Shown piece after piece: positions 1,770 to 55,233 of a stretch of 64,000 bases of DNA. The notes under the pieces were generated by a model, which had not been told where the DNA came from, ran no database searches, and saw nothing but the letters and a program-made list of their open reading frames with translations. Made by a program: the position numbers and the translations under genes. Position 1 is the first letter of the stretch. Each line of letters starts with the position of its first letter. Source of the stretch: Chiloscyllium plagiosum (Eukaryota); the NCBI RefSeq assembly GCF_004010195.1, contig NC_057756.1, positions 2,482,776 through 2,546,775 of the forward strand. The letters are read 5' to 3'.

Positions 1770-1790
1770 AATTGAAGATGACTAAACAAG
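1770..1790 (+). CDS. 21-nt heptad micro-exon (ELKMTKQ)
   Basis: ttttgtcttgtAG|aattgaagatgactaaacaag|GTctgt; phase 1 at both ends. Confidence 0.6.
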
Positions 1791-2163
1791 GTCTGTGCTG
1801 TGAAATGTGACATCAAAAGACAAAGAAGGGGGATTAGCATTTTGTCGCCAATAACCATATGATACTGGAAAATATTTATTAAAGATTGGCCAGTTACTGC
1901 ACATTTGCTCTTTATTTATCGGAGATTATTGTAAGCATTTGACAAATAAGTTGTCTCACAGGAAGCAGAGGTAATCTACCAATTCTGTTGTGCCTCTTGA
2001 TGATTGTATACATTGAAAAAAAAAGAAATAATTCGTTCTTCACTTGGTATGTCTATTACTGTGTTTGTTTATTTTTTCAATGATATTGTTGACACATGTA
2101 AACTTTTCTTCGACATCTCGATATCTCAGCCACAGTTTAATTCTAGCCTATTCTGCCCAGCAG

Positions 2164-2184
2164 CTTTTCTGCAGCAACAAGCAG
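2164..2184 (+). CDS. 21-nt heptad micro-exon (AFLQQQA); NAGNAG acceptor also allows 24 nt from 2161
   Basis: ttctgcccAGcAG|cttttctgcagcaacaagcag|GTatgg; paralogous to the other xxxxxQA exons. Confidence 0.7.
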
Positions 2185-2959
2185 GTATGGTCTGGTTCTA
2201 ATCAGTTCAATTCCTCACATGATTGTTTTCGTGTGATGATGATTTCAAGACCCTACGAAATGATCATTTCATTTCGTTTTTACGAGGACTATGGATTTTA
2301 AAAAAAAAAAACAAGATGAAGCATTCTATTCCCTAATACCTCAGGCAGCTATGTTGGTTTATTCTGCATGTCAATGAATCACAATAAAGTGTCTACGACG
2401 TTTATAACGATGCTGACTATGAAATAGATCGAGAATAGTTCTTGGAAGAAAACTTTATACGTGGCTGTAAATTAAAATAGTTATATTGAAAAGATGTTCA
2501 ATTCATTTAATAATTCAATGCAATATTATACATTTCCTAATAGTGGAAACATCGGAGTGCTTGGTGAGAGATGTGCAAGAGTGGACAACACGAGAGTGCA
2601 AGACAAGGATAGAGGTAAAGGGCGAGGGAGAGAGACGGAGGCAGAATGATAACTTAGCACAGAAAATGAGAGGCATACAGACAGAAAGACAAACAGTAGA
2701 ACGAGATGAATTCACGATCGGTTAATGCCGTACAAATGCAGTTCTGCTCGACTTATTGCTGCATCATGTGTTCGACTGAAGAATCAGCATTGTTTCATGT
2801 TGAACAACATTTGGAGGAAGTAAAGCGGTCAGCAAGGGAAGGAAAAATGTTCTCTCGTTTGAGGGCATCAACTTCCAACATCAAAGGTAGAATGGAGCAG
2901 TAGTATATATCTATCTGTTCTGGTGAGAAAGCACATAGCTGCAAGCCGGTTTCGGTGGA

Positions 2960-5355
2960 ATAGTTTGATGGAACCGTTAAGAGGGGAAGAAAGAGTGAAA
3001 TTAATAGGGTGGTTGTTATGGGGGACTTTAACTTTTCAGATATTGACTGGGAAAGCTATAGCTCGAGTTCGTTAGATGGGTTGGTTTTTGTCCAATGTGT
3101 GCAGGAGGGTTTCCTGAAACAATATGTAGACAGGCCAACAAGTAATGAGGCCATTCTGGATTTGGTTCTGGGTAACGAACCAAGCCAGGTGTTAGAATTG
3201 GAGGTAGGTGGGCACTTTGGGGACAGTGATCTCAATTCGATGACTTTTACTCTAGTGATGGAGAGGGATAAGTGTGCACTGCAAGGCAAGAGTTATAGCT
3301 GAGGGCAGGCAAATTATGATGCGGTGAGGCACGACTTAGGATGTGTGGCTTGGAAAAGTAGGCTTCAAGGGAAGGGCGCAATTGATATGTGGAGCTTGTT
3401 CAAGGAGCAACTACTGAGTGTCCTTGATACGTATGTACCTGTCAGACAGGGAGGAAAAGGTCGTGTGAGGGAGCCGTGGTTTAATAAGGAATTGGAATCC
3501 CTTGTTAAAGGGAATAGGGCAGCCTATGTAAAGATGACGCGTGAAGGTTAAATTGGGGCGCTTGAGAGTTACAAGGTAGCCAGGATGGATCTGAAGAGAG
3601 AGCTTAGAGCAGCAAGGAGGGGACATGAAAAGTCCTTAGTTGGTAGGATTAGGGAAAACCCGAAGGCTTTCTATAGGTATGTCAGGAATAAGGGTAGGAA
3701 TAGGTTCAGTCAAGGATAGTAGTGGGAAGTTGCGTGTGGAGGCTGAAGAGTTTGGGGAGACACTGAATGAATTCTTTTCATCAGTATTCACTCAGGAACA
3801 GGACATTGTTGCCGATGTGAATACTGAGTCACAATTAATTAGAATGGATGGCTTTGAGGTATGTCGGGAAGAGATGTTGGAAATTCTGGAAAGGGTGAAA
3901 ATAGATAAGTCCCCTGGGCCTGATGGCATTTATCCTACGATTCTCTGGGAAGCAAGGGAGGAGTTGCAGAGCCATTGGCCTTGATTTTTATATCCTCGTT
4001 GTCTACAGGAATAGTACCAGAAGACTGGAGGATAGCAAATGTGGTTCCCTTGTTCAAGAAGGGGAGTAGGGATAACCCTAGTAACTATAGGCCGGTGAGT
4101 CTCACTTCTGTTGTGGGCAAAGTCTTAGAGAGAATTGTAAGGGATAGGATTTATGAACATCTGGATAGGAATAATATGATCAAGGATAGTCAGCATGGTC
4201 TTGTGAAGGGCATGTCGTACCTCACAAACCTTATTGAATTCTTTGAGAACGAGGGTGGTGGACGAGGGTAAAGCGGTAGATGTCGTGTATATGGATATTA
4301 GTAAGGCGTTTGATAAGGTTCCCCATGGTAAGCTACTGCAAAAAATACGGAGGTATGGCATTGAGGGTGAGTTGGAGGTTTGGATTAGGAATTGGCTGGC
4401 TGGAAGAAGACAGATAGTAGTTGATGGCAAAGTTTCTTCATGGAGTGCCGTCACTAGCGTTGCAGATGATACGAAAGTCAGTGGAGTTGTTGACAGTGAG
4501 GAAGGATGTGGCAGGTTTCAGCGGGATCTAGATAAGCTGCATAGCTGGGCAGAGAGGTGGCAAATGGAGTTCAATGTAGGTAAGTGTTAAGTGATTCACT
4601 TTGGTAAGAGTAACAAGAAGATGGGGTACTGGGCTAATGGTCGGATCCTTGGTAGTGTGGATGAGCAGAGGGATCTTGGTGTCCATGTACACAGGTCTTT
4701 GAAAGTTGCCACCCAGGTAAATAGTGCTGTGAAGAAGCCATATGGCGTACTGGCTTTTATTGGTAGAGGAATTGAGTTCCAGAGTCTTGAGGTCATGTTG
4801 CAATTGTATAAGACTCTGGTGCGGCCGCATCTGGAGTATTGTGTGCAGTGTTGGTCGCCATACTATAGGAAGGATGTGGAGGCACTGGAACGGGTACAGT
4901 GGAGGTTTACAAGGATGTTGCCTGGTATGGTAGGAAGATCGTATGAGGAAAGGCTGAGGCACTTGGGGCTGTTTTCATTGGAGAAAAGAAGGTTTAGGGG
5001 TGACTTGATAGAGGTGTACAAGATGATTAGGGGTTTAGATAGGGTTGACCATGAGAACCTTTTTCCACATATGGAGTCAGCTATTACGAGGGGGCATAGC
5101 TTTAAATTAAGGGGTGGTAGGCATAGGACAGATATTAGGGGTAGATTATTTCCTCAGCGAGTCGTGAGTTCATGGAATGCCCTGCCAGTAGCAGTGGTGG
5201 ACTCTCCCTCTTTATGGGCATTTAAACGGGCATTGGATAGGCATATGGAGGATAGTGGGCTAATGTAGGTTAGGTGGGCTTGGATAGGCGCAATATCGAG
5301 GGCCAAAGGGCATGTACTGCGGTGTATTTTTTCTATGCTCTATTTCTATGTTCTA
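2960..5355 (+). mobile_element. 5'-truncated CR1 LINE (endonuclease end, RT, 3' UTR), frameshifted
   Basis: ORF fragments MGDFNF, ILDLVL, KSPGPDGIYP, NYRPVSLTS, KAFDKVPH, ADDTK, RPHLEYCVQ; (TCTATGT)-like tail near 5332-5355. Confidence 0.93.
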
Positions 5356-35892: not shown

Positions 35893-35913
35893 ATCTGAAG
35901 AAACATCTCTCAG
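35893..35913 (+). pseudogene. Degenerate 21-nt heptad pseudo-exon (DLKKHLS), both splice sites altered
   Basis: tttcccttgcTG|atctgaagaaacatctctcag|GAaaat; resembles the 53318 exon. Confidence 0.45.
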
Positions 35914-36660: not shown

Positions 36661-36681
36661 CACTTGCAAAGGAGCAAGCAG
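36661..36681 (+). CDS. 21-nt heptad micro-exon (ALAKEQA)
   Basis: ttttgttctgcAG|cacttgcaaaggagcaagcag|GTatag; 19/21 identical to the 48731 exon, both differences synonymous. Confidence 0.78.
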
Positions 36682-37674
36682 GTATAGACAAAAAGATTAA
36701 AGATTTTTTGACGAATAAGTGTATGCCACTATGATGGTAAATGTGGTTCTGAGAAATTGATTTATGTGATATTTTGCTTAAGAATGCGATGCATTCGGGA
36801 AGAAAAGGATAGAAAATTTCATCAATTAATACTGCACAATAGGGATATCCTTTGATTGCCTATGGCAAAGAAAAAAGATATAATGCAGAAGGAGAGCATA
36901 TCCAATATTACCAATGAGTCAAACAAAATGTTGTCACTGAAATACATTTGGTAATTCTCTGGAAAGGGAAATACTGTTATGTTTGCAGAGTAAGTTGTTT
37001 ACTTAAGATGTCGAGGAACACAGATCTGTCAAAAAAAAAGTTTTTTTGTGTGTGCTCATGACAGGCGAGCATACAATTAAGTGAAAGGTGGGGGAACCGA
37101 AGTAGACAGAAAGGCAGCGACGCAGAGAGAGAGGGGGCCGAAGGTAAAGGCAAACATAGACAGAGAGAGTGAAGTCACAAGGAATTGACGAGGAAATGTT
37201 TGGACACAATTTGCCTTTTGTCACTTGATTCTGTATCATTTCACAACCTTGAGAACATGCTGTGTACGACTAAGCTCAGAAGTGATTTTGTTCAAATTAG
37301 TGATCCATTCATGCAAAGTAATGTTTTGCTTCATTTTGGCCTGGAGAGCAGAAAAAAAGTTCAAATAAGTTATTGCTTGCACTAATTTCTGTCACAGGAG
37401 AAATGCAAGTTTAGTGAATTAAGAACAAACTTCCTCCGCAACATCTGTTCAATTACTTCATGCGATAGAAATATCGAATTTCTGTCACAAAAACTAACCA
37501 AAGCCAGAAGGTGCACCTTACTATATTAGAAACGAATACTGCTGTCTGAAAAGAAGCCCAGACAGTCCAGTGTGTGGTTCTCTGTTTCTTTTTCTTTCAG
37601 GTGATTTATGACTAAGATGAAGATACATAAGTCAGAGTCCTTTTGACGAGCTATTTTAACACTGAAGTTGAGTC

Positions 37675-40600
37675 AATTATGGACCAGGCCTGCACCCCTC
37701 AAAACATTTCAAGAAAGTTGTCCTGGGCATAACTTTGATAGTTGTTTTAAGCATGTCTAACACGGATATTTCGGGGGAATGCAGTTGGTCAAAACATGCT
37801 GTTTTAAAGAGAATAGTATTTATTTATAAAAATACCGAAAGAAACACAAAATAGAGAATCGCATAATGATTAACTTTAACTATATGAAAACCTAACATAT
37901 CATCCTAACTAAGTAATATTATTTCAAATACTTGGAGAAATCCCCATAAACGCCCCTTGGAACAAAAGGTAAAATCAATCACAGGGCCTTACAGCAGAGA
38001 TGTCATAGAGATGGCCTGAAAACCTTTCCAAGCACAGTCTTTTCTGAGTTCATGGCTTTTATGATTTCCCGAAAAAAAAGGTCAGGGTCACTATAATCTT
38101 ATTCAAGAAGGAGTATTGTCACATGTGATCCATTAAAAGAAAACCATCAATGGTCCAATGACGACCTCATTTTAAAAATCCTTAATCTTCAACTGCTATG
38201 ACTGTGCAGCACACATATACATTATTTTGAAAATAATCATGCAAACATGCATTTCTACATTTTGTTTCAGTCCGTTTTACCCCTGCTACCAAACACCTCT
38301 GTTTCTCCTTCAGGTCTCGACATTGCGTTAGCTATCATATTTTGTCGTCCTTTCACATGGATAATTTGCAAACTGTGTGGCTCTAAAAACAAGCACCACC
38401 CAAACAGTCTGATTTTATTGATCTTGCATTTCTCCATGACTGGAAATGTGTTATGTTCTGTATAATTGATTGTCTCAGATAAGTTAATAATAACATCAAG
38501 CTTGATATGTTGAAAAGCCAACACGAGGCCCAAAGTCATCTTCTCAACAGTGAAATATTTCTGCTGTTGAATGTTCAATTTCGAGAAAAATACACGATAG
38601 GTCTTTCTATTTTTTCATTGTCTTCCTGCAAGAACACAGCACCAACACTCATATCACTTGCATCGAAAGTCAATTGAACTGCGCTGCACAATTAGGTATG
38701 GCTAAGACTTGGACATTGGTTAACACAGCTCTTCAGACTGTCAAATATATTCCGCCATTCCCCTGTGCACTAAAACTTAAGGTTTTCCTTAGCAAATCAG
38801 TGAGTGGAGCAGCCACACTGTCAAAATTTGTAACACTTTTATTAGAAAATCCATCAATTCTAGGAACCGTCATTTGTTCACGTACATTAATATGGTACAG
38901 AAAGGTGATTTGAACTTTTGAAATTCACTTAACTATGTTTGACACCAAGGCTGCCTTAAGAATTCGATGAGACAAGTCTGATAATTGTTGCAAATATTCC
39001 TTCTATGAATTTTTAAAATTCACAAGTTGATCGACATTCATAACACAGTTGGCTAATTCGTCAATGGTCTTGTTTCTTAGGCTCCGAAACATGGCGGGTG
39101 TATATATCATATCAAATGGCATGACTTTAAACAGATATAGAGCATTTGGCGTTCCGAAAGCTGAAATTGCCTTCACTTTTTCTGACAATGCTATCTCTGA
39201 GCAAGTCCAATTTAGAATTATAATTTGCTTCTTCCACCTTTTCAACACAGTCTTCAAAACGTGGAATCGGTAATGCATCAATCTTTGTAACTGCATTTAC
39301 TTTAGGATAGCCCACACATAAAGGAAGCATAGTATTTAGTTTTGGCAGCGTTCTTACGGATTAGCTTCCATCACTGTAACTCACTTCGATTGCATTGTCT
39401 TGGAACATGTGTTCAAACTCCTTTAGTACTTTTGAGGTAACCTTACCTAACGTTAGAGAATTATTCCTTTAAGAATGTTTCTTAATCGGAATGACATCCC
39501 CTCTATCTACATCATGTATAAGTAGATTTAAACTTCCCAATTTCATCCCACATTTTTGCCCAAGAGATAGTAATTTTGGGTCATTTTGATTTTTTTAGGA
39601 ACGTAACACTGTAATTTATCCCAATTTTTTGACAACCTCTTCATTGTCAATCTAATTTCAGGATGGCCATTTCACAATCCTCTGAAATTGTTCCATCCCT
39701 CTCTACTGTAATAAATAACACATTCTCGTCTTGCTTTCCTTCCCTGTCAAAGTATCTTCTGAGCATAATGACAGAATACACTCTGCTCGCATTCGTTCTG
39801 CCTGCATTCCTTACCAAATAATTCATCTCACTCAGTATCCTTCCAAGTTCATAAGGTTCATTAAATGATACCTTTAAAGTTTCATTACTCCTTGGAAGTA
39901 ACGGAAATACTTCATACCCGACAGTAAAGTTGTGAGTTTTTGATTTCTTGTCTGCTAAATGTTTCATTGTGTGCTGTAAATTCTGCCTATAAATTCTGCT
40001 CAAACAACTCTTCTGCTGTCTTTGAACGATCTCTAAAATTTGACACATAGTCCAAATACGTGGGCTCTGAATTGTGACTTAACATTTTCTCCTTTATAAA
40101 TTTCAGCTGTCCTTTTAGTTCATGCCCAAAAACTAATTCAGATGGGTTGAATTTTTTGAATTCATTTGGTGCTCTCTGATCACAAAAAGCACAAAGGGAA
40201 TTCTCTTATCCCAATCATCAAGGTAGCCTTGGCAATAAGCCCTCAACATTGTCTTTAAGGTCAGATGCCGCCTCTCTACCCTTCCCACGACTCTGGATGT
40301 TATGTAATAGATTTTAATTGATCTATTCCGAAGCTATCTGTAACTTATTTGAAAAATTTTGTTGTAAATTTCAATTGATGATCTGACTACGTCTCTGCTG
40401 GGAGTCTGTATCCCCTGAAATATGTGAGTATACTTTTAGTGGTGATATTGTGTAATAGGACAGCCTCTGAAATCCAAGTGGGCACATACTGATTGCCACA
40501 TTTTGTTTTACGTCACAGTCCTACGAATTCAAATAAGACTGTTATAACGTGGTCCTCAAAGGAAGGCGTGGGCTTTTTTCTACTTCCTGAGGTTTTTCAA

Positions 40601-43462
40601 TTGCCTGATATGTACGATATGTCTGGCAAAATGCCACTGCGAGGTAAAAACAATGACTGCAGATGCTGGAAACCAGAGTTTCGAATAGTGTGGTGCTGGA
40701 AAAGCACAGCAGTTCAGGCAGCATCTAAGGAGCAGTAAAATCGGCGTTTCGGGCAAAAGCCCTTCATCAGGAATACAGGCAGAGTGCCTGAAGGGTGGAG
40801 AGATAAATGAGAGGAGGGTGGGGGTGTGGAGAAAGGAGCATAGAGTACAATAGGTGATTGGGGGAGGGGAAGAAGGTGATAGGTCAGGGAGGAGCATGGA
40901 GTGGATAGGTGGAAAGGAAGATAGGCAGGTAAGACAAGTCATGGGGACAGTGCTGAGTTGGAAGTTTGGAGCTGGGGTTAGGTGGGGGAAGGGGAAATGA
41001 GGAAACTGGTGAAGTCCAAAGCTTCATTGTGCAGTGCAAGTTAGTAAAAATATTATTGCATTTCAGCTTGGGTTTTTCTCACTTCTAAATAATACCCTGC
41101 AGGTGGATTGCAAGACCTCCTTTTGATAAAACAACAGGAAAAACAATTTGATGAACTTCCAACCTTTTTCCAGCTGCCTGAGTGTGTGATGGCCCTCAGT
41201 ATCTTATTAAGACATTTTTTTAAACGTAATAACATTCGGATTATTTTAAATTTTCATCAGTCTGCTGTAACACAGGTAATTTGCCTGAAGTAAAGATCCC
41301 AGCTGTGTTATCGGTCTATTCTTGGTTTGGCTCAAGCATCTGTTCAAACAATAACTCTGCTAATTCTACCTCAACTTTCTTATCCGCAGTCTTTGATCTC
41401 ACCTGTTTGTACTGGTGACTTTGTGACCTACCTACCAAACAGTCTGGAAAAATCCAAGCTCATTTGTCTCAGAATAGTACAGTTGCTCAATTTCCACTGG
41501 CTTTTGACAATAGGAATCACTCCTGCCTGTGTTCCAGCTATGTGATTTTCAAGTACGAATTGTATTCCTGGAACTGAGGTTTTGTCCATTACGCTTACCA
41601 CAACTTCTCCACTCATCCTGCACTTTATAAAATAGACGATTGCTTTTCTCATCATGCATTCCCGTCACTAGCCCTTTTCGTGGCAATTGTGCTTCAGAAT
41701 TGCATATCTCCTCATCTTTCAAGATTGCAGATTGAGAATATCCTGTATCTATTAATATTGCAATCTCCTGAACTGTTACTCCTGGTCTAAGGGAGAAAAC
41801 TTTACCTTCGCAGGGATATGTTTCAAGAAGATCTGGCACTTCCTCCTGAAAAATCTCAGACCAGCTTCAACATTCTGATGCGAATTTCCAGCCTCTACTG
41901 TGTTTTCCATTACGACTCCAACGAAATTAACTGGTTGATCTTATTATTTCTGCAGTGCTTTTCCTAATCCACCAATACTATGATTGCATTTGGCCTACTT
42001 TATGCCAGTGAAAACACTGGAGCTTTTTAACTTCTTGGATCACTTGAAGGACTTTCTTTTTACCTTGTGATAAATTTTCCTTATGATCTTCAACAGGATC
42101 TGGATTTCCACTTCCATGCAAGCTTTCTCTTTTCCCAAATTTCTGTCCATCACGTAATTAAATTGATTTTGTTAACCAATCTTTGATTTGCGGCCAATTC
42201 ACAATCATTTGCGATGTTTGCAGCTAATCCTGCCATTTTAACATTCTGCACTACCACGAGTTCTCATTACCTCAGAATTTGAGTTTGTGGACTGCCTCAG
42301 TTCAATTTCTGAAGTTCAAATTCCCTCTATTTACTCTTTTGTTCTCTCTCTCTTTCTGTCTTGATTCTCTCTCTTCGCTTTCTTTTTCTTCACCGTTTTG
42401 CTCTACTTATATTACTATGATCTTTATTTCGGTCCTTTGTTTTTAATCGTAATCCGAACTGTTTACGATGTCTGCTGCCCTTTCCTATTCTTTTGCCTCT
42501 AACTCAAGCTGCTTTTCTGTTGAAAATGAGCCATCTCTATAGATTTATCATGACATTTCCAGCAAACTACATGCTATTTACTGTTATTATTCTTTCTTCA
42601 TGGAAGGAAGGTGCTTCAGCTTCTTTGCTAATTCTAGCATTGTGGCCGTATTCACATTTTGCAAAACCGCAATGTTACTTCTTCCATTCCCAAACCTCTT
42701 GGTGACTGATAGTCAGTCGTATCACAAACACGGCTTAAACCCACCGAACGTAACACCCAAACCCAAAACAGAAACACTTACCACTTGCTTATTCGAGTTG
42801 AATCAGTACGATAGCAGAAGTTCGTGAACGTCCATCAATATGTTATAGACAAGACATGACACCATAAAAACATTTCAAGGAAGTAGCCCAGACACTAACT
42901 TGCGAGTTGGTTCAAATAAGTATATCACAGATATTCCCGACGAGGGTGGGGGTGTGAATGAATTGGTCAAATCACACCGGTTTAAACAAAACAGAATTTA
43001 TTTAAAAGACTACTGAGTGAAACACAAAACAAAAGCGAGCAGAATATAAATAACTTTTCGGATTGAAATCCCACTAAATCATCCAAAAGTATTGATGATG
43101 TTTCAAATATTTGCAACAATCCCCATCAATACCTCTTGGCACAAAAGATAAAATGAAACATAACTTCTCACAGGAGAGAAGGTCCACGTGGACCTGTTTC
43201 CTTTGGGTTCAAAAAATTCAAACAGAATTGCTACTGCAAACCAAATCAAACCAGAGGAAACCTGAGCTGGGACAAACGGGACAGTACCCTAACTCTCTAC
43301 ACTTTCATCTTAATTTCCAAAAAAAAAGGCTTTTGATTGATGATAAAATCAGACTGGCCCTAAACCCTTCCAAACACAGACTTTTCGAAATCTGAGTGTT
43401 TTACAACCTCCTGAAAAACGTCGAGGGCACTATAAATTTGTTTACAGTGCAGATTTGTCACA
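37675..43462 (-). mobile_element. Full-span degraded Gmr1-like Gypsy element with two LTRs and 4-bp TSD AGTC
   Basis: LTRs at about 37675-38123 and 42841-43462; AGTC at 37671-37674 and 43463-43466; protease ILIDTGYSQS (41549-41839); integrase region 39650-41250; RT KVMPF (39003-39330); RNase H end HVKGRQNMIANAMSR (38267-38578). Confidence 0.87.
40640..41020 (-). mobile_element. Penelope-derived terminal-repeat fragment nested in the Gypsy element
   Basis: gtaaaaacaatgactgcagatgctggaaacc...gtttcgggcaaaagcccttcatcaggaat followed by a G/A-rich tract. Confidence 0.78.
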
Positions 43463-43541
43463 AGTCCATTTCATTTCTTGCTGATATTTGGAAATGGGAG
43501 AGTCAACTAATTCAACATTAAAAGTATATTTCACGTTGCAG

Positions 43542-43562
43542 ATATGGTGAAGGAGAAAGCTG
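43542..43562 (+). pseudogene. 21-nt heptad pseudo-exon (DMVKEKA), donor GT>AT
   Basis: cacgttgcAG|atatggtgaaggagaaagctg|ATaagc; its upstream flank shares ctgatatttggaaatggga with the 46726 copy. Confidence 0.65.
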
Positions 43563-44009
43563 ATAAGCTTACAAACACGATATAGGTATTCCAGTGAGTT
43601 CATTATCAATGGAACATTGTTAATATTATTATTACCTCAAAGCATGCCTTGCAACTCGACTTATACGTGAAATGCACAATGAACAGCATGTGACATACCT
43701 TAGCAATTCAAAACACTGCGTGATACCAATGAGACATGGTTCTTAACAATAATTATGCGCACTGCCAGAGATTAGACAATAGCAACTGATATCATATCAA
43801 AGAGGTGCGAACCATGCAAAAGAGTAACGAATGGCACGGACTCTGAATCATAAAATCTGTTAGTGAAGTTAAGAAACGATACAGGAAACATAATGTCGGC
43901 AATTAATGCAAAGCAGAACACATGTTGTTTCTAATAAACGAGATGGTATTTCGCCACCAACGAAGATAATTCTTATGGTGCCAACTTACATTTATATGTT
44001 CGTTGCATG

Positions 44010-44061
<52 letters not shown>

Positions 44062-44140
44062 CATCTATCTATCTATCTATCTGTCTGTCTATTTGTCTAT
44101 CCGTAAGTATATATCTATGTGTCTATCTATCTATTTATCT
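44010..44140. repeat. (TATC)n microsatellite
   Basis: Direct tandem repeat. Confidence 0.95.
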
Positions 44141-44440
44141 ACTTACCTCTCTCTATACTTAAAATATTGCCAGTCATCTATTTACGCTACTGAACTGAAC
44201 AATAACAAATAAAGTAAGTGTTGTTGGGTGAACAAACAGAGACATAAGATTACAAAAAAATGCAATTAAGCGACAAAACCAGAAAGTCAAGACATAAAAA
44301 GATAATGGACAAATAAATTGTTTACCCATTCCCTCATTAATAAACACATCATAAGTTGCAGTATTGATCAATGATATGTGTAATCCAGTGACATCGTGAC
44401 ATTTCATTAATAGAGTTTGATATAACACTATAACATGCTA

Positions 44441-44575
44441 ATTTCTGATGAAGGGATTTTTCCCGAAACGTCGATTTTCCTGCTGCTCGGATACTGCCGG
44501 ACTTGCTGTGCTTTTCCAGAACCACTCTAATCTAGACTCTGGTTCCCAGCATCTGCAGTCCTTGTTTTTACCTAA
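44441..44575 (+). mobile_element. Short Penelope-derived repeat with a minimal hammerhead-ribozyme motif
   Basis: CTGATGA-A-GGGA-TTTT-TCCC-GAAAC-GTC at 44445-44472, followed by the family body ..ccagcatctgcagtcc.. Confidence 0.75.
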
Positions 44576-45615
44576 ATATTAGGGGATTTATGTGCTTTCA
44601 TGGATAAGCTATTTATCTCAAAAGTGAGCTTCAAAGTAGGCAGAGACATAGTGACAATGCCACGTAAATAATAATAAATTGATTGTGTGATCTGTCACCA
44701 TCTTCTCTTGATGCACACAGTGCTATGTCTGGGTTTTTTTCAGGATATCAGTGAGCTCGTGTAGGTTTTCGGAATGTGTATGTTACTGATAAGCATTTTA
44801 ATTCTGATCGACTTTACCCTGCAGCGTGGGCAAAGGAACAGGCAGAAATAGAATATGACAAAGGCGAAACTGAGAGGCAAGACGGTCGTGATTGAACAGC
44901 AATGGCAGGTCAGGGAGCTTGCGAGGAGCAGGACAATTGACTATCCTGATCAAATATTTTTTTCCAGAAACGTCGCCTCTCCTGCTCCTCGGATTGTGCC
45001 TCACCTACTGTTGATTTTCTGTTACCACAATAATAAAATAACAGGTCAATCATATCGTCATGTTGAGTAGCCTATCTTGAGAAACTGCTTGATAATGTTA
45101 CACTTACTAACACCATTCTTAATCAATGAAAGTTGCCTTCCATCGATAAATACTTACAAAAGAAAGGCGTGAATTCATTTCTTGTGAAAATGGCCAGGTT
45201 ACTGTTTTGAAGTAGTGCACACAATTACTTGATAATAAGAGAACTGTGATATGGGAACATAACGAAATCATAATGCGTTCTGAAAATCAAGAATGTAGTT
45301 ATGATGTCGTTTGATTTAAATCATCTGAGTATCTGTAAGAAATTGAGGTGCTGCGAAATCTCTTCAAGAAGAATAAAATCATTTTATCCATGCAGGAGAG
45401 CAGGGTAGAGAGCGAGAAAGAAGGTGAGAGCAGGCGAACAAGAGAACGTGAGATCGCGTTAGAGTGAGAGAGAGGGGAGGAGAACGTTCTTTCAAGCAAT
45501 GTACATACTGACCCCTTCCATTCCTTTTTGTAAAATTGAGTACTCATGATGGCATTGCTGCCAGCTGGATGTCCATTTGACATTTCAAATATATTCTGCT
45601 TATTTTTTCTTGCAG

Positions 45616-45636
45616 TACTTGTGAAAGAACAAGCAG
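45616..45636 (+). pseudogene. Heptad micro-exon copy (VLVKEQA) missing one G at the exon/donor junction
   Basis: ttttttcttgcAG|tacttgtgaaagaacaagcag|taaag; using GTAAAG as donor gives a frameshifting 20-nt exon. Confidence 0.65.
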
Positions 45637-46290
45637 TAAAGTGAATCAATGTTGAAACGTGGAAAACTGGATCGGTCACTTCTCTTATGAAAGTACAGAT
45701 TAGTTTGAGAAACTGCTTTCTGGAATTGTTCTTGCAACAGCCAGATAAAGTTTGAAAAAGAAAAGAACGTTTCATTTCACTGACTAAAGGAACAAAACAG
45801 AGGTACCCCTTTTTTTTCCACGGCGAAGGCGTCAGATGCATTCTGAAAGAGCAGAATATGAAAAACTAACGATGAGTCGAATGGATTTTGTACACATGAA
45901 CAAATCTTTCAATGTCGTAAGGAGGGGAAAATGGGCAGTTGAAGATGATCAGTTAGCAATCGATGTGCAAATACATGTACTGAACAGAATGGAAATGTTT
46001 GTGAGTGCTTGCAGGCGGTAAGGGGTGAGCTAAGAGGAACACCAAGGTCAATATGCACAGGCAGACTGATAGACACGATGACATATACCCAATCAGAGAG
46101 AGAAAAAAAAACAACAAATGACATGTTCATGTGATCACCGCATCATTACTTCCTTATTTCTGCACCATTTTAGATTTTTGATGGAGTCAATCTACCGGAA
46201 ATGAGAAGTTAAAATTCGAAATTCATTGAGCTGAAAGTCGTTATCCAGCCATACAAAAAAAAACAAACTTGTCTTTGCTTTGTCTTACAG

Positions 46291-46311
46291 AGCATGCAAT
46301 GTACAAAGAAG
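46291..46311 (+). CDS. 21-nt heptad micro-exon (EHAMYKE)
   Basis: ctttgtcttacAG|agcatgcaatgtacaaagaag|GTatga. Confidence 0.72.
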
Positions 46312-46725
46312 GTATGAATCATACGAATTCTATCACGGAGCATGAGAAAATGTAATGAGCTGAGACGAACATTCCACGTCCACATAGCATTTTGAGGTAA
46401 TATTGCTTCAAGTTCTTTTCACCTATGTTCACAAAAATGAACAAAAAAAAAAATCAGATTCGATCAAACAAGACAATTAACGCATGCAGGTGACAGGTGA
46501 AAAAAATTCAAGAACCGTGGCGCTGTCTGGAAAAGCAGCATTTACATGACGGAGGTTAATTTTATGCTTCACATTTTTAACAGAATCTTTCCTAAACTGA
46601 AGGTAGATACACCATCTTCTTTTGATGATGGAAAGGCATTTTGTATTTGAGGCCACTTCCTATCATTACTGATATTTGGAAATGGGACAACTCACGATTA
46701 AATTAAGATGGCTTACTCACTGCAA

Positions 46726-46746
46726 ATTTGGCAAAGGAACAATTAG
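46726..46746 (+). pseudogene. 21-nt heptad pseudo-exon (DLAKEQL), acceptor CAG>CAA
   Basis: ctcactgcAA|atttggcaaaggaacaattag|GTaaca. Confidence 0.65.
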
Positions 46747-47159
46747 GTAACATTATAAAAAATATATATGTATATATGCTTATTTGATTCAGTTGCTAAC
46801 TTACGATAGTAACATTTTATTGCCTATAAGCATCAACTACTATTGCATTTATGTACATGTATGGACAATGATGCGTCAATAAATCTGTTTCGAATTACAC
46901 AAAACTTCATGATGACTGTCGAAAGACTGAATTGGAAACCATATTGGCAGCGTTACAAAGGTAGTAAATAACATGTAATATCACACATGGAATCATGAGG
47001 GAAAAAAACTCAAATGTTAAATATTTGCCGACAATAAATCTATTTTTGCAGTGAGGAAATACAGGCATACACCGACAGGAAGAGAAATAAGCACAGATGT
47101 GGAGACTTAGAAGAATTTGAGAATGAGAACGCGATAGAAACAGGAAAAGGGTGATAGAA

Positions 47160-48487
47160 TGGGAGTAGACACAACCCAGATAATTATAGACCAGTGAGCC
47201 TTACTTTGCGTGTGGGTAACGTGGTGGAAAAGGTTATAAAAGATAGGATTTATAATAATCTAGAGACGAATAAGTTGATTAGGGATAGTCAGCATGGTTT
47301 TGTGAAGAGTAGGTTGGATGTCACAAACCTTGTGAGTTCTTTGAGATGGTGAACAAACAGGCGGATGAGGGTAAGGTCGTTGATTTCTGTAAGTCGTTTG
47401 ATACGGTTTCCCACAGTAGGCTATTACAGAAAATACGGAGACATGGGAGTGAGGGTGATTTTAAAAATTGGATTCGAAATTGGCTTGCTGAAAGAAGACA
47501 GAAGGCGTTGGTTGATGGGAAATGTGGAGTTCAGCGAGGAAGTCTACCGTACTGGTCTATTTTGAAGCCACTGCTGTTTGTCATTTTTATAAATGACCTG
47601 AATGATAGCGTAAAAGTATAGGTGAGTATATTTACGGATTGCACAAAGGTCGGTGGAGTTGTGGATTGTGCTGAGGAATGTTGCAGGCTACCGAGTAACA
47701 CAGACAAGTTGCAGTTTAATAGAGAAAAGACTGAGGTCATTTCCATTGGAAGGAGCAATAGGAATGTAGAGTACTGGGCTAATGGTCAGATACTTCTTGG
47801 AGTAGATGAGCAGAGAGATCTTGGTGTCTATGAACATAGACCTCTGAAAGTTGCCACCTCAGTTGATAGGGTTGTTCAGAAGGAATACAGTATGTTGGCT
47901 TTTATTGTTAGAGGGTTTAAGTTTCAGAGCCACTAGTTCTTGCATCAAATGTACAAACATCTGTTGTGACCACACTTGGAGTATTGTGTAAAGTTCAGGT
48001 CACTGCATTATGGGAAGGATCTGGTAGCCTTGAAAAGGTTCAGATGAGATTTAACAAGATGTTTCCTACTATACAGCAAAGATCCAAATAGGAAAGCCTG
48101 AGGGACCTGAGGCTGTTTTCCTTCGACAGATGAAGTTTTATAGGTGTCTTAATTGCGGCATATAAAATAAGCATGGAGCTCGATTGGATGGGCAGTGACA
48201 ATCTCTTTCCTCGGATGCAGATGGCTAGCTCGAGGGGACATTGCTTCAACTTAAGTGGTAATAGACGTAGGATAGATATCGAGGGAACTGCTTTGGTAGC
48301 GACATGGACAACACTGCCTGCAACAACAGGAGTCTAAATAAATTTAACGGTTTTTTTAATGGTCATTGGATTAACATAAGGATGAAAACGTAACAGTGTA
48401 GGATAGATATGCTTCAGATATGTTTCAGGACAACGTAACACAGTCCGAAGGACATTTAATGTACACTTTTTTTTGTTCTACGTTCTA
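47160..48487 (+). mobile_element. Degraded CR1 RT and 3' fragment
   Basis: aattatagaccagtgagccttact; ORFs KSFDTVSH..WIRNWL and DEQRDLGV; ttctacgttcta tail. Confidence 0.88.
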
Positions 48488-48730
48488 AAAGGAGCGTTTA
48501 CATAAAACGATGTAATCAAATTCAGAAAGATAACAATTAGGTGTTAAAGATTTGCTCCTGAACGTAATGTCATAATTACTGCATTGTGTAAACAGAGAGA
48601 AAATAAAATGTTGTTCAGTTGATGGCACTAATATGACATTATCGTCATTTCAGTCAAACCATCATATTGTCTTTTCAAACCATCCAGTACCTGAGTATCC
48701 TTATTATTGTGGTCTATTTTTTCCATTTAG

Positions 48731-48751
48731 CACTTGCAAAGGAACAAGCTG
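48731..48751 (+). CDS. 21-nt heptad micro-exon (ALAKEQA)
   Basis: ttttttccatttAG|cacttgcaaaggaacaagctg|GTatgg. Confidence 0.78.
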
Positions 48752-50214
48752 GTATGGACAGTAAAATATAAATTCTTTCCACTAGCTAGTTAGATGATGC
48801 AGATAAACCGTGGTTGGGAATATTTCTTAAAAGAACTCTGCATTGCAGCGCAGAAAACCCAAACTCGAGATGTTTGCTGCTTTTATGCTATTTTAGTTAT
48901 TTATTGTGGCGTGTAAAATATTGGAAAATGGAGGGAAAAGTTTTGCTCAGTATGCCTACTCTCAGGCACCACCTTACAACAAAAAAAGACGAAAAATGAC
49001 GTAATAACGAAAACATGTTCAACTTTACCGTCCATTGGTGACGTGCTGCACGGCCTGGTTGCCAGCCACAATTCTCCTCCACTGCGCTGCCACTGCGAGA
49101 ATGAGGTTGCCTTTCTTAAGCACCATCTCGTCTCCACTATCGCGATCGCCACTATGAGACCTCGATGGACTTCGTGAATGCACACTGCAGCGATGTACCA
49201 AGGTGACAGAGTTCAGCTCAGCCACTGCAATCAGTCTGCGTCAACATACCACGACAGTGGAGCTCTGCTCATACTGCCAGGTCCGGATTTGGGCCCAAAC
49301 CCTCTACCCCTGTCCAGCCCTTTCAATCTGCACTGTACTGTCTGCACGATGCAGAAGGGATTGAAACCCCCCTCTTACGCTGCTGTCACAAGGCCATGCC
49401 ATTGGGCATATCATGCAAATAAAATACAAGCAAATAAACCAGGGAAGAGAGAACATTTTTATGGTTACTGCCCAGACGTTCAGCACATACTTTATTGATG
49501 ATGGAACAAATTGCATATATAAAGAGATGAAGAAACTTTAATGATCGCGAGAAAGTGATATTCAATTACCTCGTTAGTAGGTGTTCATGCCCATCTCAGA
49601 CGATAATGGGAGAGTTAGATTCAAATGTTGTGTTAAAGAACAAATGATCTAGCCATCGAGCGAGATCGACATAATTAGGGACAAGGATGAATAAATAGAA
49701 CAGGCAGACCTAGACATTGTTGATTGATCAGTCAGTCAATAAGTTATCTAGGATCTGTTTGGAGAGAAAAAAAAAACATGCTCATGTTCTTATTTCTGCA
49801 TAATCTTGGCATTGTGGAAATACCATCCAATTAACATTTTAATCCTTGAACTCAGCACTCATTTTATTTACTAAGATTTGTGAACTGGCCATGCCTCAAC
49901 GATGTTGATTTTCGTATTGCTTTGTACCACAGACCATAATATGCATGAAAAGTTAGGGAATGCAGCAATTCCACCTATTCATCACTTTTGAATTAGTAGA
50001 AATACACCTTATCTTCAGCTCACGTTGAATCTTTGAAAATTCCTCCTTGCATGAATTGCGACAAATATTTGTCTGCAAAGGGATAGTTAAACAGAGATAG
50101 AGAGCAAAATAGTAACGTAACTGTCCCACAAGCAGCCCATTGTATTTGGAACATTTCAGAGAATGTTACAACACTGAATGCAAACATTGGGACATGGAGC
50201 ACAGAAAGTAGAAC

Positions 50215-50660
50215 GATAAAGCACAGGAACAATGCATTTCGTTCACCATGTGTATGTCACACATGATAAAATTCTATGCTCAGCCTATTTGCCTGCACAT
50301 GACGTCCTGCTTGTCTTAAAGCTTGAGACAGTGTATGCTTCAACCAGATCCCCTGGAAGCACATTCCATACAGTTACCCATCCATACCCATCTGTAAAAA
50401 AAAAATCCCTCACTCATACTTTACTTTCCCACCTCAGATCTAACAGCTATGGTGCATAGCAATTCACATTTCATGATAAACGTTAAGTAGCCACGTTATT
50501 CCATGCCCTCATAATTTTTTACACATATTTTCTAGGTCTCTTCTTAGACTCTGTCACGCTACGGAAAACAAACTAATTTTGTCCATATTATTCAATTGCT
50601 ACTAACATCCAATCTGAAGTACATCCCGTTAAAACCCTTTTGCAGCTTCCACAAAGCCTC
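50215..50660 (-). mobile_element. Very old CR1 3' fragment
   Basis: Decayed motifs gcttcaacca..ccctggaagcacattcca and ccatgccctcataatttt. Confidence 0.5.
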
Positions 50661-51529
50661 AGCATTTTGACAAGGGCCGTGCATTGATGAAATAGAAATA
50701 GACTCCACACTTTAAATTCTGTTCCTGTAAGTACTGGTTGTGAGTTTAACTATTAACTATCTAGATTGGAAAAGAAAGGATGAAATATGAACGGGGCTTC
50801 CCCTTCTAGATTTAATAATTTTATGTTAAGGGAGGCAACGTTATTTTATTTTCTTTGAAATGGTCATGAATATATCGAGTGTGGTAAACGCCACGAAAAA
50901 AAAGAGTTTAAAGAGTAGGCAGACAGACGTTTCATTAGTAACCGATGAAATGGTTATGTGCAGCCAGCAAAGATGTGGAGTTGAGGTTTAAAAGAGATCC
51001 GATTAGTCAGTATGCACAGGTGTAATACCCTCTACAGAAATTGAGTACACATTCTCCTGTTTTTAAGGCCCAGGCTTATCCAACTAAATTATTTGCGTTT
51101 CAAAATGAAAGAACAGATAGGTCTGTATATTAGTTAGGATTACTATTACAAATTTCACCGATGACAGCTTTAAATGTCAGTGAATAGAATGCCAAGGAAG
51201 ATTTGCTTGTTTATTATTTGCATATGGAATCACATCATCTCTAGAAACAATAAAATGTCAATAGATGATAATTTGTACAATGACAAAAATAAAACATGAA
51301 TGTACAGAATTCCGACAGTACTATCTATTAATGCAACACACCAGAAGAGATAGTGATAATGATGTTTTACATTCACAAATGTCACTAATGAAGCTCATGA
51401 ATGTTTTCAATAAATGTTGGGATCTGATCTCAAACAACATTAACAAAACTTGATGTAAAACAGGATTTTGCATGAATGCTGACCTTTGCTGTTATCTACA
51501 TTGTGTCGAGAAAATCCAATGACGTTAAA

Positions 51530-52140
51530 GAATGATAGAATTTCACAGCCCAGAAGCAGACCCCTTAGTCCAACCTATGTGCGCAGACAAAAGATCCAAA
51601 ACAGATCGAGACTCATTCTCCAGTTTCTATCATCTCCCTGTAAATCTTTGCTCTTCATGTATCCATTCAATTCCATTTATACTGTTGTAATTGAGCCCGC
51701 CTACACCACCTCTCCCGGCAGATTGTTACATACACTTATTATTTGCTGCATCCAAAAGTTGCACTGCAGGTCACCTAAATAATTGCCCTCTAGCTTTGGA
51801 CTCGGCAAGTCTGGGTGCAGTACCTTGTCTTTTCAGCCGATTCATAACCCCCCCCCCCCCCCGATTTTGTAAATTACTAGACGGTTTTCCCTTAGCACCA
51901 GACCCCGCATGGGAAAATAATCCAGCCTATTCAGCCTAGTCGTATAGCTCAAACTATCCAAGACCGACACGATGTTTGCTAATATTTTTTGATCTCCTTC
52001 AAAATCAAAAAGATTTTTGTGAAAGCGGGGTACAATACCTGAATGCAGCATCCTAAATTCCTGATTTGTAAAAAATGGAAACACTCTAATGTATTCAATT
52101 TGGGCGACTTGCATTTGAATTCGTATACTCTGATTGATCT
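51530..52140 (-). mobile_element. Old CR1 3' fragment
   Basis: Decayed reverse complement of the CR1 3' end (accacctctcccggcag..; tccagcctattcagcct). Confidence 0.65.
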
Positions 52141-52647
52141 TTATCGAACATTTTTAATTCACCATGCGAAAAATATTTTGGACAGCTCGACTAATGTGTT
52201 TCTCTTTTCCCAACCAGATTTTAAGAATTGTGAAGAAGGTGAGAAAGATAATAGCATTAGATTTAACACATTGCCAACAGTAAATAATTAGGATTTTTGT
52301 AACATCGGTTATTAGGTACAAGTGAAGACTCATCATTGTTCCATTTCGAACAACTCAACCTGAAATCTCGGTTTGATGGTTAGAGACTAATTGCTTCGTA
52401 GAAACAATTGATGGAACGTTCATGCAGAGCGGGATGAGAATAAAAGTTTATTGCTATTAAAACTAAGACAAGTTATTACTGATTGACAGAAAACATCTTG
52501 AAGAGAAACAGAATAACGTATAAACCATAGTACTGTGGATCACAATACTTTCTTAGTTGATTTTGAGACTGAATACGATTTAAATGCCAATGGTATAAAA
52601 TAGTCTTCCTTTATAAGAATGCATGTCATTTTTTGCTTTCCGTGTAA

Positions 52648-52668
52648 AATTCGTTGAGGACCAAACAG
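52648..52668 (+). pseudogene. 21-nt heptad pseudo-exon (EFVEDQT), acceptor TAG>TAA
   Basis: ttttgctttccgtgtAA|aattcgttgaggaccaaacag|GTaaat. Confidence 0.55.
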
Positions 52669-53317
52669 GTAAATATAACTTAAATATAAATAAGTTATTC
52701 CTGTGTTTTACCAACAATCTAACGTGAGGAAAGCTGTTAAGAAAAGTCAAGACTTTCCTCCAGAATACAGAGATTAATAATGATCATAACGTCATTTTTT
52801 GTTTACATTGCACCAGAATCCAACATCAAGCATTGCACTTAAACGCTTCCATCTCTTTTTTGTTAAGCAGAGGCTTAATTCTTTTCCTGCTTGTGGGTGC
52901 ATCACTGGATGCGCACTTTGCCAAACTAATTCTGGAATGCAATAGACTTTAAAAAAACACACATCATGAATGATGATTAAGATATGAAATGTATTCTTCA
53001 TACTTAATTTAAAATAAAAGTAAAATGTTTTCAGAATAAATGGTTATATCGGGATCTGGCATTAATTCTCTCAAATAGAGTGAGAAATTTATATGTAAAC
53101 ATAGATAGAATTGCATTGGAATGTAACCGTGTGCTTTAATGACGCATCGTGGCCCAACTATTCGTTTTCTTCGCGTCAGATCCGCTACCTCGTGATTTGT
53201 TTAAAAAAATTGCTTCCCGTCAACTTCTCGTATTTATGCTGATAATTATTCACACATCGAAACTTATGACAAAGAATAAAAGTATAGAATGTTTAAACCT
53301 TTCTCTATTCTCTGCAG

Positions 53318-53338
53318 ATCTTAAGAAATATAAAGAGG
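53318..53338 (+). CDS. 21-nt heptad micro-exon (DLKKYKE)
   Basis: ttctctattctctgcAG|atcttaagaaatataaagagg|GTgagg. Confidence 0.75.
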
Positions 53339-53376
53339 GTGAGGCCACCAACAGAAAATAAAAACTAAAAAAAAAT

Positions 53377-54156
53377 TGTGAGAAGATTTGTAGCTCGGGT
53401 GCTCGTTGCTGTGGTTCTGTTCGCCGAGCTGGAAGTTTTTGTTGCAAACGTTTCGTCCCCTGTCCAGGTGACATCCTCAGTGCTTGGGAGCCTCCTGTGT
53501 AGCGCTTCTGTGGTGTTTCCTCCGGCATTTATAGTGGCCTGTCCCTGCCGCTTCCGGTTGTCAGTTTCAGTTGTCCGCTGTAGTGGCCGGTATATTGGGT
53601 CCAGGTCTATGTGTTTATTGATGGAGTTTGTGGATGAGTGCCAAGCTTCGAGGAATTCCCTCGCTGCTCTTTGTTTCGCTTGCCCTATAATGGTAGTGTT
53701 GCCCCAGTCAAATCTATGTTGCTTGTCATCTGCGTGTGTGGCTACTAGGGATAGCTGGTCGTGTCGTTTCGTGGCTAGTTGATGTTCGTGGATGCGGATC
53801 GTTAGCTGTGTTCGTGTTTGTCATTTATAGTGTTTTGTGCAGTCCTTGCATGGGATTTTGTACACTACGTTAGTTTTGCTCATGCTGGGTATCGGGTCCT
53901 TTGCTTTGGTGAGTTGTTGTCTGAGAGTGGCTGTTGGTCTGTGTGCTGTTATAAGTCCTAGTGGTTGCAGTAGTCTGGCTGTCATTTCAGAGATGTCTGA
54001 CAACCGGAAGCGGCAGGGACAGACCACTATAAATGCCGGAGGAAACACCACAGAAGCGCTTCACAGTAGGCTCCCAAGCACTTAGGATATCACCTAGACA
54101 GGGGACGAAACGTTTGCAACAAAAACTTCCAGCTCGGCGAACAGAACCACAGCAAC
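53377..54156 (-). mobile_element. 5'-truncated Penelope-like element (GIY-YIG endonuclease end) with inverted pseudo-LTRs
   Basis: Minus ORF KDPIPSMSKTNVVYKIPCKDCTKHY; about 160-bp inverted repeat 53405-53564 versus 53997-54156; near-duplicated flank ctaaaaaaaa(a)t. Confidence 0.9.
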
Positions 54157-54745
54157 TAAAAAAAATGTTGTACCACCATGCATCTTGAGATAGCATGGAA
54201 ACAAAATTGCCTTAACGGTTATCTATAAGTGATGTAACTTTAGTGGGTTGTCATTAATGTGATGGTATTGAGTTGTCAGAAATTATTCCTTGTTCGGAAA
54301 TATACATTGATTAACATTTAACGACAGCTGCCGAGATGGTGAGTTTTTTTTAATTACTCCTGTATTGATGAGCTGGAACATAAAGACAACATTAGCATGT
54401 CCTTCCATCATTGTGGATAGAATGATCGAAAATGAATGCATATTATGTTTTTACATACGTTTCAGGTCATCAAACAAAAATGTTGTTTTGGTCAATGGAA
54501 ATTGATTGGTATCTATTAAAAAATTATCAACACTTTGTCTTGCATAGTAGCAGAATTGGGAATGTCGTAAATGGTTTTGAAATATGGTCATAAATAAATC
54601 CACGTAACTGGATTGTGGAAAAAATAGATAATGTATCACAATTTGCATTTCTGTTGTGTTTGATTAGCTTGAAAATATCAAATTGATTCAGCTTTAAACT
54701 AGGCATGACAAATATGTCTAAATATTTTTTACTCTTCCTCTACAG

Positions 54746-54766
54746 AACTGATGAAGGATCAAGCTG
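54746..54766 (+). CDS. 21-nt heptad micro-exon (ELMKDQA)
   Basis: actcttcctctacAG|aactgatgaaggatcaagctg|GTatgg. Confidence 0.77.
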
Positions 54767-55186
54767 GTATGGAAAGATAAGACAAAACACATCCATTGTT
54801 ATTCGTACATAGTACCGTTGCTAACGAGCTCATTCGATCTTTTTGCACTACTTTACACGCTATCCCGCCACATAATAAGATGCAGGACTGCATTCATTCT
54901 AAAAAAAAAATCATTCTAAAATCTGAAATTGAAAGACTAAGTAAACTTGTAGTACTCAGCGATGTGTAGATTTTGATAATGTTTCTATAGTATATATAAT
55001 CAGTTGAAGGCTGTAGGATTAGCAGTTTTATTGTGTTGTACATGGATGTAATTTCAGCGGCCCGGAGACTTTCATTTATCATTTCAAGATAATCCTACAA
55101 ATTGGAAGTTTCGAAATCGAAAAATGTATGTATGAATTTTCCCATCTTTATGTGATTTGCTCCCATTTTGCTTTACTTTCAATCAG

Positions 55187-55233
55187 ATTGGAGAAAACTT
55201 GAAAAGACAGTAAAGTTGCATGGACAATCATGA
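55187..55233 (+). CDS. Candidate terminal coding exon of the heptad-exon gene (DWRKLEKTVKLHGQS*)
   Basis: Strong acceptor cattttgctttactttcaatcAG; the phase-1 reading keeps a hydrophobic residue at heptad position 2; TGA at 55231-55233. Confidence 0.45.

Follow-up and report, generated by a model that had tools for sequence, protein, structure and literature searches.

The cytoplasmic tail of the chicken BG and butyrophilin proteins is the sole described precedent for a gene in which successive exons of 21 nucleotides (nt) each encode one heptad, and there the exons are closely spaced within compact genes. Most BG genes are of this compact kind and lie in or near the major histocompatibility complex (MHC), with BG0 an exception. 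A full-text literature search, supplements aside, returned no such array outside BG and butyrophilin. Here we describe an array of this exon format in a shark, Chiloscyllium plagiosum. It was noticed in a window of 64,000 nt (contig NC_057756.1, hereafter C47, positions 2,482,776-2,546,775 of a 3.56-Gb assembly), and it continues on both sides of that window.

In the parts of the published accounts on which we draw, a chicken BG gene comprises a signal exon, an IgV exon, a transmembrane (TM) exon, 27-37 tail exons, whose length is 21 nt but for a few of 18 or 24 nt, and a 3' untranslated region (3'UTR) exon (PMC5938342; PMC4046983). The first codon of each tail exon is split 1+2, i.e. the exons are in phase 1, and hydrophobic residues occur at the fourth and last codons (PMC5938342). 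The heptads are those of a presumed alpha-helical coiled coil, the length of which varies with exon number and by alternative splicing (PMC4046983; PMC5938342). Butyrophilins have a few cytoplasmic heptad repeats between TM and B30.2, their number depending on the species (PMC4046983; PMC12841164). In several cartilaginous fishes the butyrophilins are on the chromosome that carries MHC class I (PMC12841164).

The shark array is like the chicken BG tail, as described in those parts of the accounts, in having many tandem 21-nt exons in phase 1 (43 are intact in the 324 kb that we have read) and in devoting each exon to one heptad of helical, coiled-coil-type sequence. It is unlike BG in several respects. 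In place of a compact gene, at least 50 exons extend across about 435 kb, and the longest introns measure at least 31 kb. The hydrophobic codons are 2 and 5, whereas codons 4 and 7 are given for BG, and the signal, IgV, TM and 3'UTR exons of BG were not found in our scans of the shark sequence. C47 lacks MHC class I matches, so that the array and MHC class I lie on separate contigs, unlike the cartilaginous fish butyrophilins in the part of that account used here (PMC12841164). Butyrophilins in general have few heptads, always with IgV, IgC and TM and usually with B30.2, none of which was found near the array in our scans.

The micro-exon genes of schistosomes consist almost wholly of very short symmetric exons, and frame-safe skipping of these varies the protein. 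The shark exons are likewise short and symmetric, and skipping them would keep the frame. The schistosome genes encode secreted flatworm proteins from exons of 6-36 nt with no heptad or coiled coil, unlike the uniform 21-nt heptad exons here, and there is no relation by descent.

The array of 21-nt exons

An earlier note, made from the window alone, had claimed ten exons on the + strand. On re-reading the window sequence we find all ten at the starts given, each exactly 21 nt in length, and each with a pyrimidine-rich tract and AG before it and GT behind. All are in phase 1/1, the first codon taking one base from the preceding exon and two from its own exon. The six whole codons read from the third base, together with the split first codon, reproduce the residues that had been listed. 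Position 2 of the heptad is hydrophobic in nine of the ten and position 6 is K or Q in every one. The pair of identical heptads at 36661 and 48731 differ by two bases, both synonymous (GAG/GAA and GCA/GCT). Not among the ten were a further intact exon, at 52218-52238, and a set of six or seven copies that have decayed. The end of the claimed extent, 1770-55233, lies beyond the last exon, which stops at 54766. The array of coding micro-exons is real, and larger than first reported.

The window contains 232 AG-21nt-GT sites on the + strand and 195 on the - strand. When these were passed through a strict filter (at least 13 pyrimidines in 20, at least three of five donor positions, and an open frame), ten survived on the + strand and none on the - strand. 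The survivors are eight of the ten claimed exons, the new exon at 52218 and a chance site at 3796 within a long interspersed nuclear element (LINE). With a profile derived from the ten exons, four more + strand copies, at 43542, 44825, 45616 and 52218, score 20-30 bits, compared with a maximum of 6.2 on the - strand.

The sequence read amounts to 324 kb, comprising the window with 100 kb on each side (a 264-kb block), 40 kb further upstream and 20 kb further downstream. It corresponds to C47:2,280,163-2,745,815 except for 2,320,163-2,382,775 and 2,646,776-2,725,815 (about 142 kb within the array). Over these 324 kb a profile of 37 exons gives 56 matches of at least 10 bits on the + strand and none on the - strand. 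AG, GT and an open frame are all present in 43 of the 56, and the other 13 have lost a splice site or acquired a stop. In a separate scan with splice-site profiles, exon length was free to take any multiple of 3 between 6 and 300 nt. Only 21 nt was enriched, with 35 on the + strand against two on the - strand, and the count for each other length was 0-2 per strand.

Within the 3.56-Gb genome, exons of these types are all but confined to this array. Allowing up to two mismatches, an LAKEQA-type pattern has seven matches in the whole genome, six of them on the + strand of C47, and for an LKKxKE-type pattern the figures are 13 and 12. Exact matching of a degenerate pattern gives 18 matches genome-wide with 11 on C47 +, and a looser one gives 37 with 18 on C47 +. 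Of these last, 17 lie within 2,384,703-2,725,815, and the same pattern read backwards has five matches in all.

The exons, decayed copies and assembly gap of the window are as follows, in window positions, with scores in bits.

1770-1790, + strand: exon (E)LKMTKQ, 21 nt, phase 1/1, with a weak donor GTCTGT, 28.1 bits
2164-2184, + strand: exon (A)FLQQQA, 21 nt, separated from exon 1770 by an intron of 373 nt, 37.2 bits
12234-12254, + strand: exon (D)LAKMQA, 21 nt, 41.5 bits
12871-12891, + strand: exon (D)MKKAKE, 21 nt, 35.6 bits
13599-13619, + strand: exon (Q)FAKEQA, 21 nt, 37.4 bits
36661-36681, + strand: exon (A)LAKEQA, 21 nt, 41.8 bits
46291-46311, + strand: exon (E)HAMYKE, 21 nt, 36.4 bits
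48731-48751, + strand: exon (A)LAKEQA, 21 nt, 38.6 bits
52218-52238, + strand: newly found exon (D)FKNCEE, 21 nt, with acceptor CAG and donor GTGAGA intact, 35.8 bits
53318-53338, + strand: exon (D)LKKYKE, 21 nt, 38.9 bits
54746-54766, + strand: exon (E)LMKDQA, 21 nt, the last in the window, 38.2 bits
1180, + strand: weak decayed copy, possibly the seventh in the window
35893-35913, + strand: decayed copy LKKHLS, acceptor CTG and donor GA, 13.7 bits
43542-43562, + strand: decayed copy MVKEKA, donor GT changed to AT, 26.6 bits
44193-44213, + strand: decayed copy with no acceptor and an in-frame stop, 18.8 bits
44825-44845, + strand: decayed copy WAKEQA, donor gone (AA), 15.6 bits
45616-45636, + strand: decayed copy LVKEQA, no GT directly behind the 21st base, 27.9 bits
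46726-46746, + strand: decayed copy LAKEQL, acceptor AG changed to AA, 414 nt past exon 46291, 14.3 bits
15551-16050, no strand: assembly gap of 500 N in the intron between exons 13599 and 36661

Five of the dead copies form a compact string with one live exon between 43542 and 46726. Sequence, possibly including exons, may be missing at the gap. There are long simple-sequence tracts at window 1-488 and 34302-34850, which translate to poly-(SIYL) and (ERKK)n. Remains of retroelements occur in the introns at 2964-5268 and 47313-47936 on the + strand and at 26134-26514 and 38270-38614 on the - strand, among them fragments of LINE endonuclease and reverse transcriptase, a piece of RNase H and an integrase zinc-binding domain.

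The array spans at least C47:2,298,844-2,733,513 on the + strand, a distance of about 435 kb. Its first candidate, at 2,298,844, is weak (15.4 bits) and the next is at 2,301,254; the profile search finds no exon candidate in the 18.7 kb upstream of C47:2,298,844. The last candidate starts at 2,733,493. Seven further exon-like sites were found by pattern search outside the 324 kb, at 2,320,162, 2,320,557, 2,358,652, 2,678,813, 2,690,710, 2,715,442 and 2,725,788, and two of the seven have the donor GC instead of GT. In total there are about 50 intact-looking exons over the 435 kb.

Each exon takes the general form [D/E/A]-[L/F/M]-[K/A/R]-K-[C/Y/E]-[K/Q]-[E/A]. Two types, [D/E]-L-K-K-(C/Y)-K-E and [A/D]-L-A-K-E-Q-A, tend to alternate, and are often paired at a distance of 370-750 nt with 2-31 kb between pairs. 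The pair looks like an ancestral duplication unit. From 84.8 kb onward, counted from the start of the window, only the LKK(C/Y)KE type is found, together with a variant FRKCQE. Between +105,000 and +164,000 on the same scale there are tandem segmental duplications of about 10 kb with 64-73% identity, and each segment bears one FRKCQE exon and one MKKCKE exon. The 3' part of the array has thus grown by a duplication unit that is both younger and larger than that of the core.

A short motif, GAYGA or ACGAR and often preceded by AATGT, lies 20 to 70 nt past the donor in 19 of the 43 intact exons, compared with 13% of random windows and one of the 13 decayed copies; it was found post hoc. An intronic splicing enhancer is one possible explanation, and a remnant of the ancestral intron is another. 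We also considered the SRRM4-type UGC motif at the acceptor, and TGCAG is present in only 11 of 43, which is unremarkable.

The predicted rod and the conservation of its exons

We joined 38 consecutive intact exons of the 264-kb block in order, giving 265 codons with no stop. Stop-free junction codons say little in themselves, because most exons end in G. The product is rich in K (24.5%), E (15.1%), A (11.3%), L (8.7%) and Q (8.3%), with a net charge of +14, and it contains no proline or tryptophan, a single glycine and no N-x-S/T sequon. Its hydrophobicity is strongly periodic. The power at a period of 3.5 residues is 130.8, whereas 500 shuffles average 9.0 and reach 43.1 at most, and at a period of 7 it is 194.5, compared with 9.5 and 50.4.

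Position 2 is hydrophobic in 40 of the 43 intact exons, position 4 is K in 30, and position 7 is E (23) or A (13). At position 5 the most frequent residues are C (11), E (11) and Y (6). In the 265-residue product all ten cysteines and six of the seven tyrosines lie at position 5. With a seam that is half polar, a classical dimeric coiled coil, although likely, is not assured, and a single stable helix is a possible alternative.

Similarity between the copies of the core array is confined to 24-59 nt centred on the exon, while the introns are unalignable; two longer matches, away from the exon, resemble repeats. The exon and its splice sites carry much information, and the content drops to background beyond about -20 and +36 nt. 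With a profile of the exon body only, in which the splice dinucleotides were unscored, 32 of 37 + strand matches of at least 14 bits have exact AG and GT and an open frame, compared with none of four on the - strand. In the young downstream duplicates the exons are identical at 18-20 of 21 positions and the flanks at 71-82% over aligned columns, the pairs not being mutually independent. The 13 broken copies, with lost sites or stops, are what relaxed copies look like, and their existence means that unprotected copies do decay. Because only the exon and splice sites stay similar between old copies, the comparison points to purifying selection and thus to an array that is selectively maintained.

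We regard it as probable that this is a selectively maintained array of one-heptad micro-exons that encodes a long Lys/Glu-rich helical rod. The window would be the middle of a very large + strand locus in which the 21-nt exons are the only recognisable coding elements. We infer that these exons belong to a single gene and are spliced one after another into a segment of its mRNA. The product would be an uninterrupted Lys/Glu-rich alpha-helical rod of roughly 350-450 residues, probably paired as a coiled coil, with a hydrophobic seam made by codon 2 (Leu, Phe or Met) and codon 5 (Cys or Tyr in every other heptad). Since every exon is one heptad in the same phase, any subset of exons would preserve both frame and heptad register, in agreement with the modularity that the earlier note had proposed. 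Skipping or duplicating any exon should thus alter the length of the rod with frame and register intact.

Several observations weigh against this interpretation. Half of the 'd' positions are polar (E in 11 of 43 at position 5), so that a classical two-stranded coiled coil is not assured by the seam. Many of the introns are 2-31 kb in length, which are unusual surroundings for exons of 21 nt. No first exon, last exon or exon for another domain was found in our scans, making 'one gene' an assumption. The profiles were trained on the exons themselves, so that absolute numbers of matches, the 56 included, are partly circular; the contrasts between strands, between exon lengths and across the genome are free of this circularity. 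Lastly, sequence reads mapped on window 36001-56000 show no joints between micro-exons, although exons of 21 nt cannot seed an alignment.

The runs mapped were two single-cell poly(A) runs, of which about 2% and 6% were read, one run that is possibly RNA and one of DNA. RNA-type reads from one poly(A) run and the possible RNA run fall only on interspersed repeats, at window 40.0-41.3, 44.0-44.7, 47.3-48.0 and 53.3-54.7 kb, and from the other poly(A) run none mapped. Such mapping is no test of the array, since a mature mRNA assembled from 21-nt exons has no long word in common with genomic DNA. In addition, single-cell data with a 3' bias seldom extend to the middle of a giant gene. In the DNA run, window 40003-41336, 44005-44671, 47340-48006 and 53343-54676 are very high-copy interspersed repeats, with a summed contig depth of 10^4 to 10^6.

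Possible gene context of the array

We searched for partner exons by Pfam scans of 742 stop-to-stop open reading frames (ORFs), covering about 334 kb in all. These were 301 + strand ORFs of at least 75 amino acids and 181 - strand ORFs of at least 88 amino acids in the 264-kb block, 188 ORFs of at least 60-70 amino acids on both strands in 60 kb at and beyond the two ends of the array, and 72 from a second cluster described below. The only domains found in the 742 ORFs are those of retroelements (RVT_1, RNase H, integrase and endonuclease), with no match to V-set, C-set, PRY or SPRY, array ends and second cluster included. The earlier note had placed immunoglobulin (Ig) and TM exons upstream of the window. 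Taken as just upstream, this is wrong as stated; it is the array itself that runs on there, for about 184 kb. Neither a V-set match nor a TM-like exon was found in the array sequence scanned or in the 18.7 kb upstream of the first exon. The B30.2 domain that was to be sought downstream is also missing from the places scanned, with no SPRY or PRY match in the 12 kb after the last exon or elsewhere in the 334 kb. A search for TM-like phase-1 exons gave no convincing candidate, with two weak ones on the + strand against eight on the - strand. A CpG-island scan gave nothing usable, because islands do not stand out from a background CpG observed/expected ratio of about 0.6.

For the wider chromosomal context we scored domain candidates across the genome. 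All 67 candidates for MHC class I were scored, and the 50 matches are all on contig C37 or on small unplaced contigs; linkage of the array to the MHC was accordingly rejected. A C-type lectin neck was rejected as well, since none of the 43 Lectin_C matches (133 of 133 candidates scored) is on C47. Among the matches listed for SPRY (150 of 293 candidates scored), the only one on C47 is at 4,577,660. Among those listed for the CD80-like C2-set (C2-set_2, 150 of 302 candidates scored), 11 of 67 are on C47, at 5.69-10.21 Mb, and among those listed for V-set (150 of 1319 candidates scored) there is a C47 exon at 10,206,275. One of the C47 C2-set matches lies 1.5 kb after this V-set exon. There is a cluster of genes of the B7/butyrophilin/nectin type on the chromosome of the array, megabases away. 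Contig C37 carries a massive expansion of SPRY/B30.2 exons, with the bulk of the SPRY matches listed and many of these within 27.5-34.4 Mb, as well as the MHC class I exons.

The one C47 match to the looser pattern that lies outside the array, at 3,798,333, belongs to a second small cluster at C47:3,796,661-3,799,014. This cluster lies on the + strand, as the array does, at a point 1.06 Mb further downstream, and also consists of 21-nt phase-1 heptad exons. Two are strong (LAKCQD and LKKRNE, with 33.8 and 28.5 bits and 637 nt apart) and two are weak. No recognisable Pfam domain exon was found within 5 kb on either side (72 ORFs of at least 45 amino acids, both strands), and at the DNA level the cluster has no paralogue.

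The array could belong to a lineage-specific coiled-coil gene unrelated to butyrophilins, whether cytoskeletal, secreted or forming a membrane stalk, in which the exon format arose by repeated tandem duplication of a two-exon, 14-residue unit. We hold this as a tentative possibility. It is consistent with the finding of nothing but 21-nt exons across 324 kb, with a heptad register unlike that of BG, and with a locus that is unique and without MHC linkage. The tandem duplication of about 10 kb at +105 to +164 kb from the start of the window is still expanding the array, and the cysteines are confined to one core position (ten of ten at position 5). Cysteine recurring at one core position is seen in disulfide-locked extracellular stalks, and we count the analogy in favour. 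Against it, the literature search gave no described precedent, neither a start nor an end exon was identified, and the idea of a C-type lectin stalk failed, as Lectin_C is absent from C47.

A bolder form, which we advance with some doubt, is a stand-alone giant gene or tandem gene pair whose coding sequence is essentially only 21-nt exons, about 50-65 of them over more than 430 kb. It would encode a Lys-rich rod of 350-450 residues, with combinatorial exon skipping tuning its length and surface, in a format independent of the BG/butyrophilin tail.

It is also possible, though doubtful, that the array encodes the cytoplasmic tail of a receptor of the BG/butyrophilin kind, a type I protein of the Ig superfamily, with signal, IgV and TM exons upstream and B30.2 downstream or not. 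Phase 1 is the typical phase of Ig-superfamily exons, which counts for a receptor of this kind. C47 is rich in CD80-like C2-set exons (11 of 67 among the matches listed), and its V-set exon at 10,206,275 and SPRY exon at 4,577,660 place B7/butyrophilin-type genes on the chromosome. The second cluster at 3,796,661-3,799,014 resembles the layout of butyrophilins with their few heptads. The format of the chicken BG tail is matched in the 21-nt length, the codon split 1+2, the single heptad per exon and the many exons in a row, as far as the parts of the accounts used here describe it (PMC5938342; PMC4046983). However, no V-set, C-set, PRY or SPRY match occurs among the 301 + strand, 181 - strand, 188 end and 72 second-cluster ORFs, and the TM-like exons are fewer on the + strand than on the - strand. 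The nearest Ig or SPRY match on C47 is more than 1.8 Mb away among the matches listed (150 of 1319 V-set, 150 of 293 SPRY and 150 of 302 C2-set_2 candidates scored), and MHC class I is not on C47. The seam lies at codons 2 and 5 and not at 4 and 7 as in BG, and contig C37, rich in B30.2, is without any exact pattern match. Thus of the coiled-coil tail of a BG/butyrophilin-like receptor proposed in the earlier note, the one-heptad coding micro-exons and the long, uninterrupted coiled-coil-like rod hold good, and the Ig-TM receptor part found no supporting feature in any test.

We consider it improbable that the array is a decaying relic, a former working tail or rod that is now spliced into no mRNA. 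The broken copies (13 of 56 candidates), with the compact run of five dead ones at window 43542-46726, and huge introns full of retroelements would suit a relic, and there is no RNA support, which as noted is no test. Yet in 43 exons both splice sites and the open frame have survived although the introns have diverged beyond alignment, and the exons of young duplicates are more alike than their flanks. The stop-free junction codons over 38 exons also speak against decay, as weak evidence.

That the exons are AG...GT sites arisen by chance, or fragments of a repeat family, is refuted by the contrasts of strand (56 matches against none), of length (enrichment at 21 nt only) and of locus (pattern matches concentrated in one 435-kb locus of a 3.56-Gb genome), and by flanks that are not repeated, even though the region is AT-rich with abundant A/G-rich words and stray single matches do occur elsewhere (19 of the 37 exact matches are off C47).

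Implications of the array

In this shark the exon format of the BG/butyrophilin tail has stayed intact over about 435 kb of a locus filled with repeats. Should transcripts bear the array out, nature would offer here an extreme test of micro-exon recognition, in which dozens of 21-nt exons in succession are placed between introns of many kilobases. Were the locus a stand-alone giant gene, the vertebrate spliceosome would be joining 21-nt exons by the dozen, one after the next, over introns of 5-30 kb.

A gene of this construction, once confirmed by transcripts, would be practically invisible to ORF finders and to word-based mapping of RNA, since every exon is too short to seed an alignment. The annotations of large genomes may for that reason lack similar genes. 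Confirmation would also either push the BG-type tail back to the cartilaginous fish, or reveal a convergent coiled coil of adjustable length built on the principle of one exon, one heptad.

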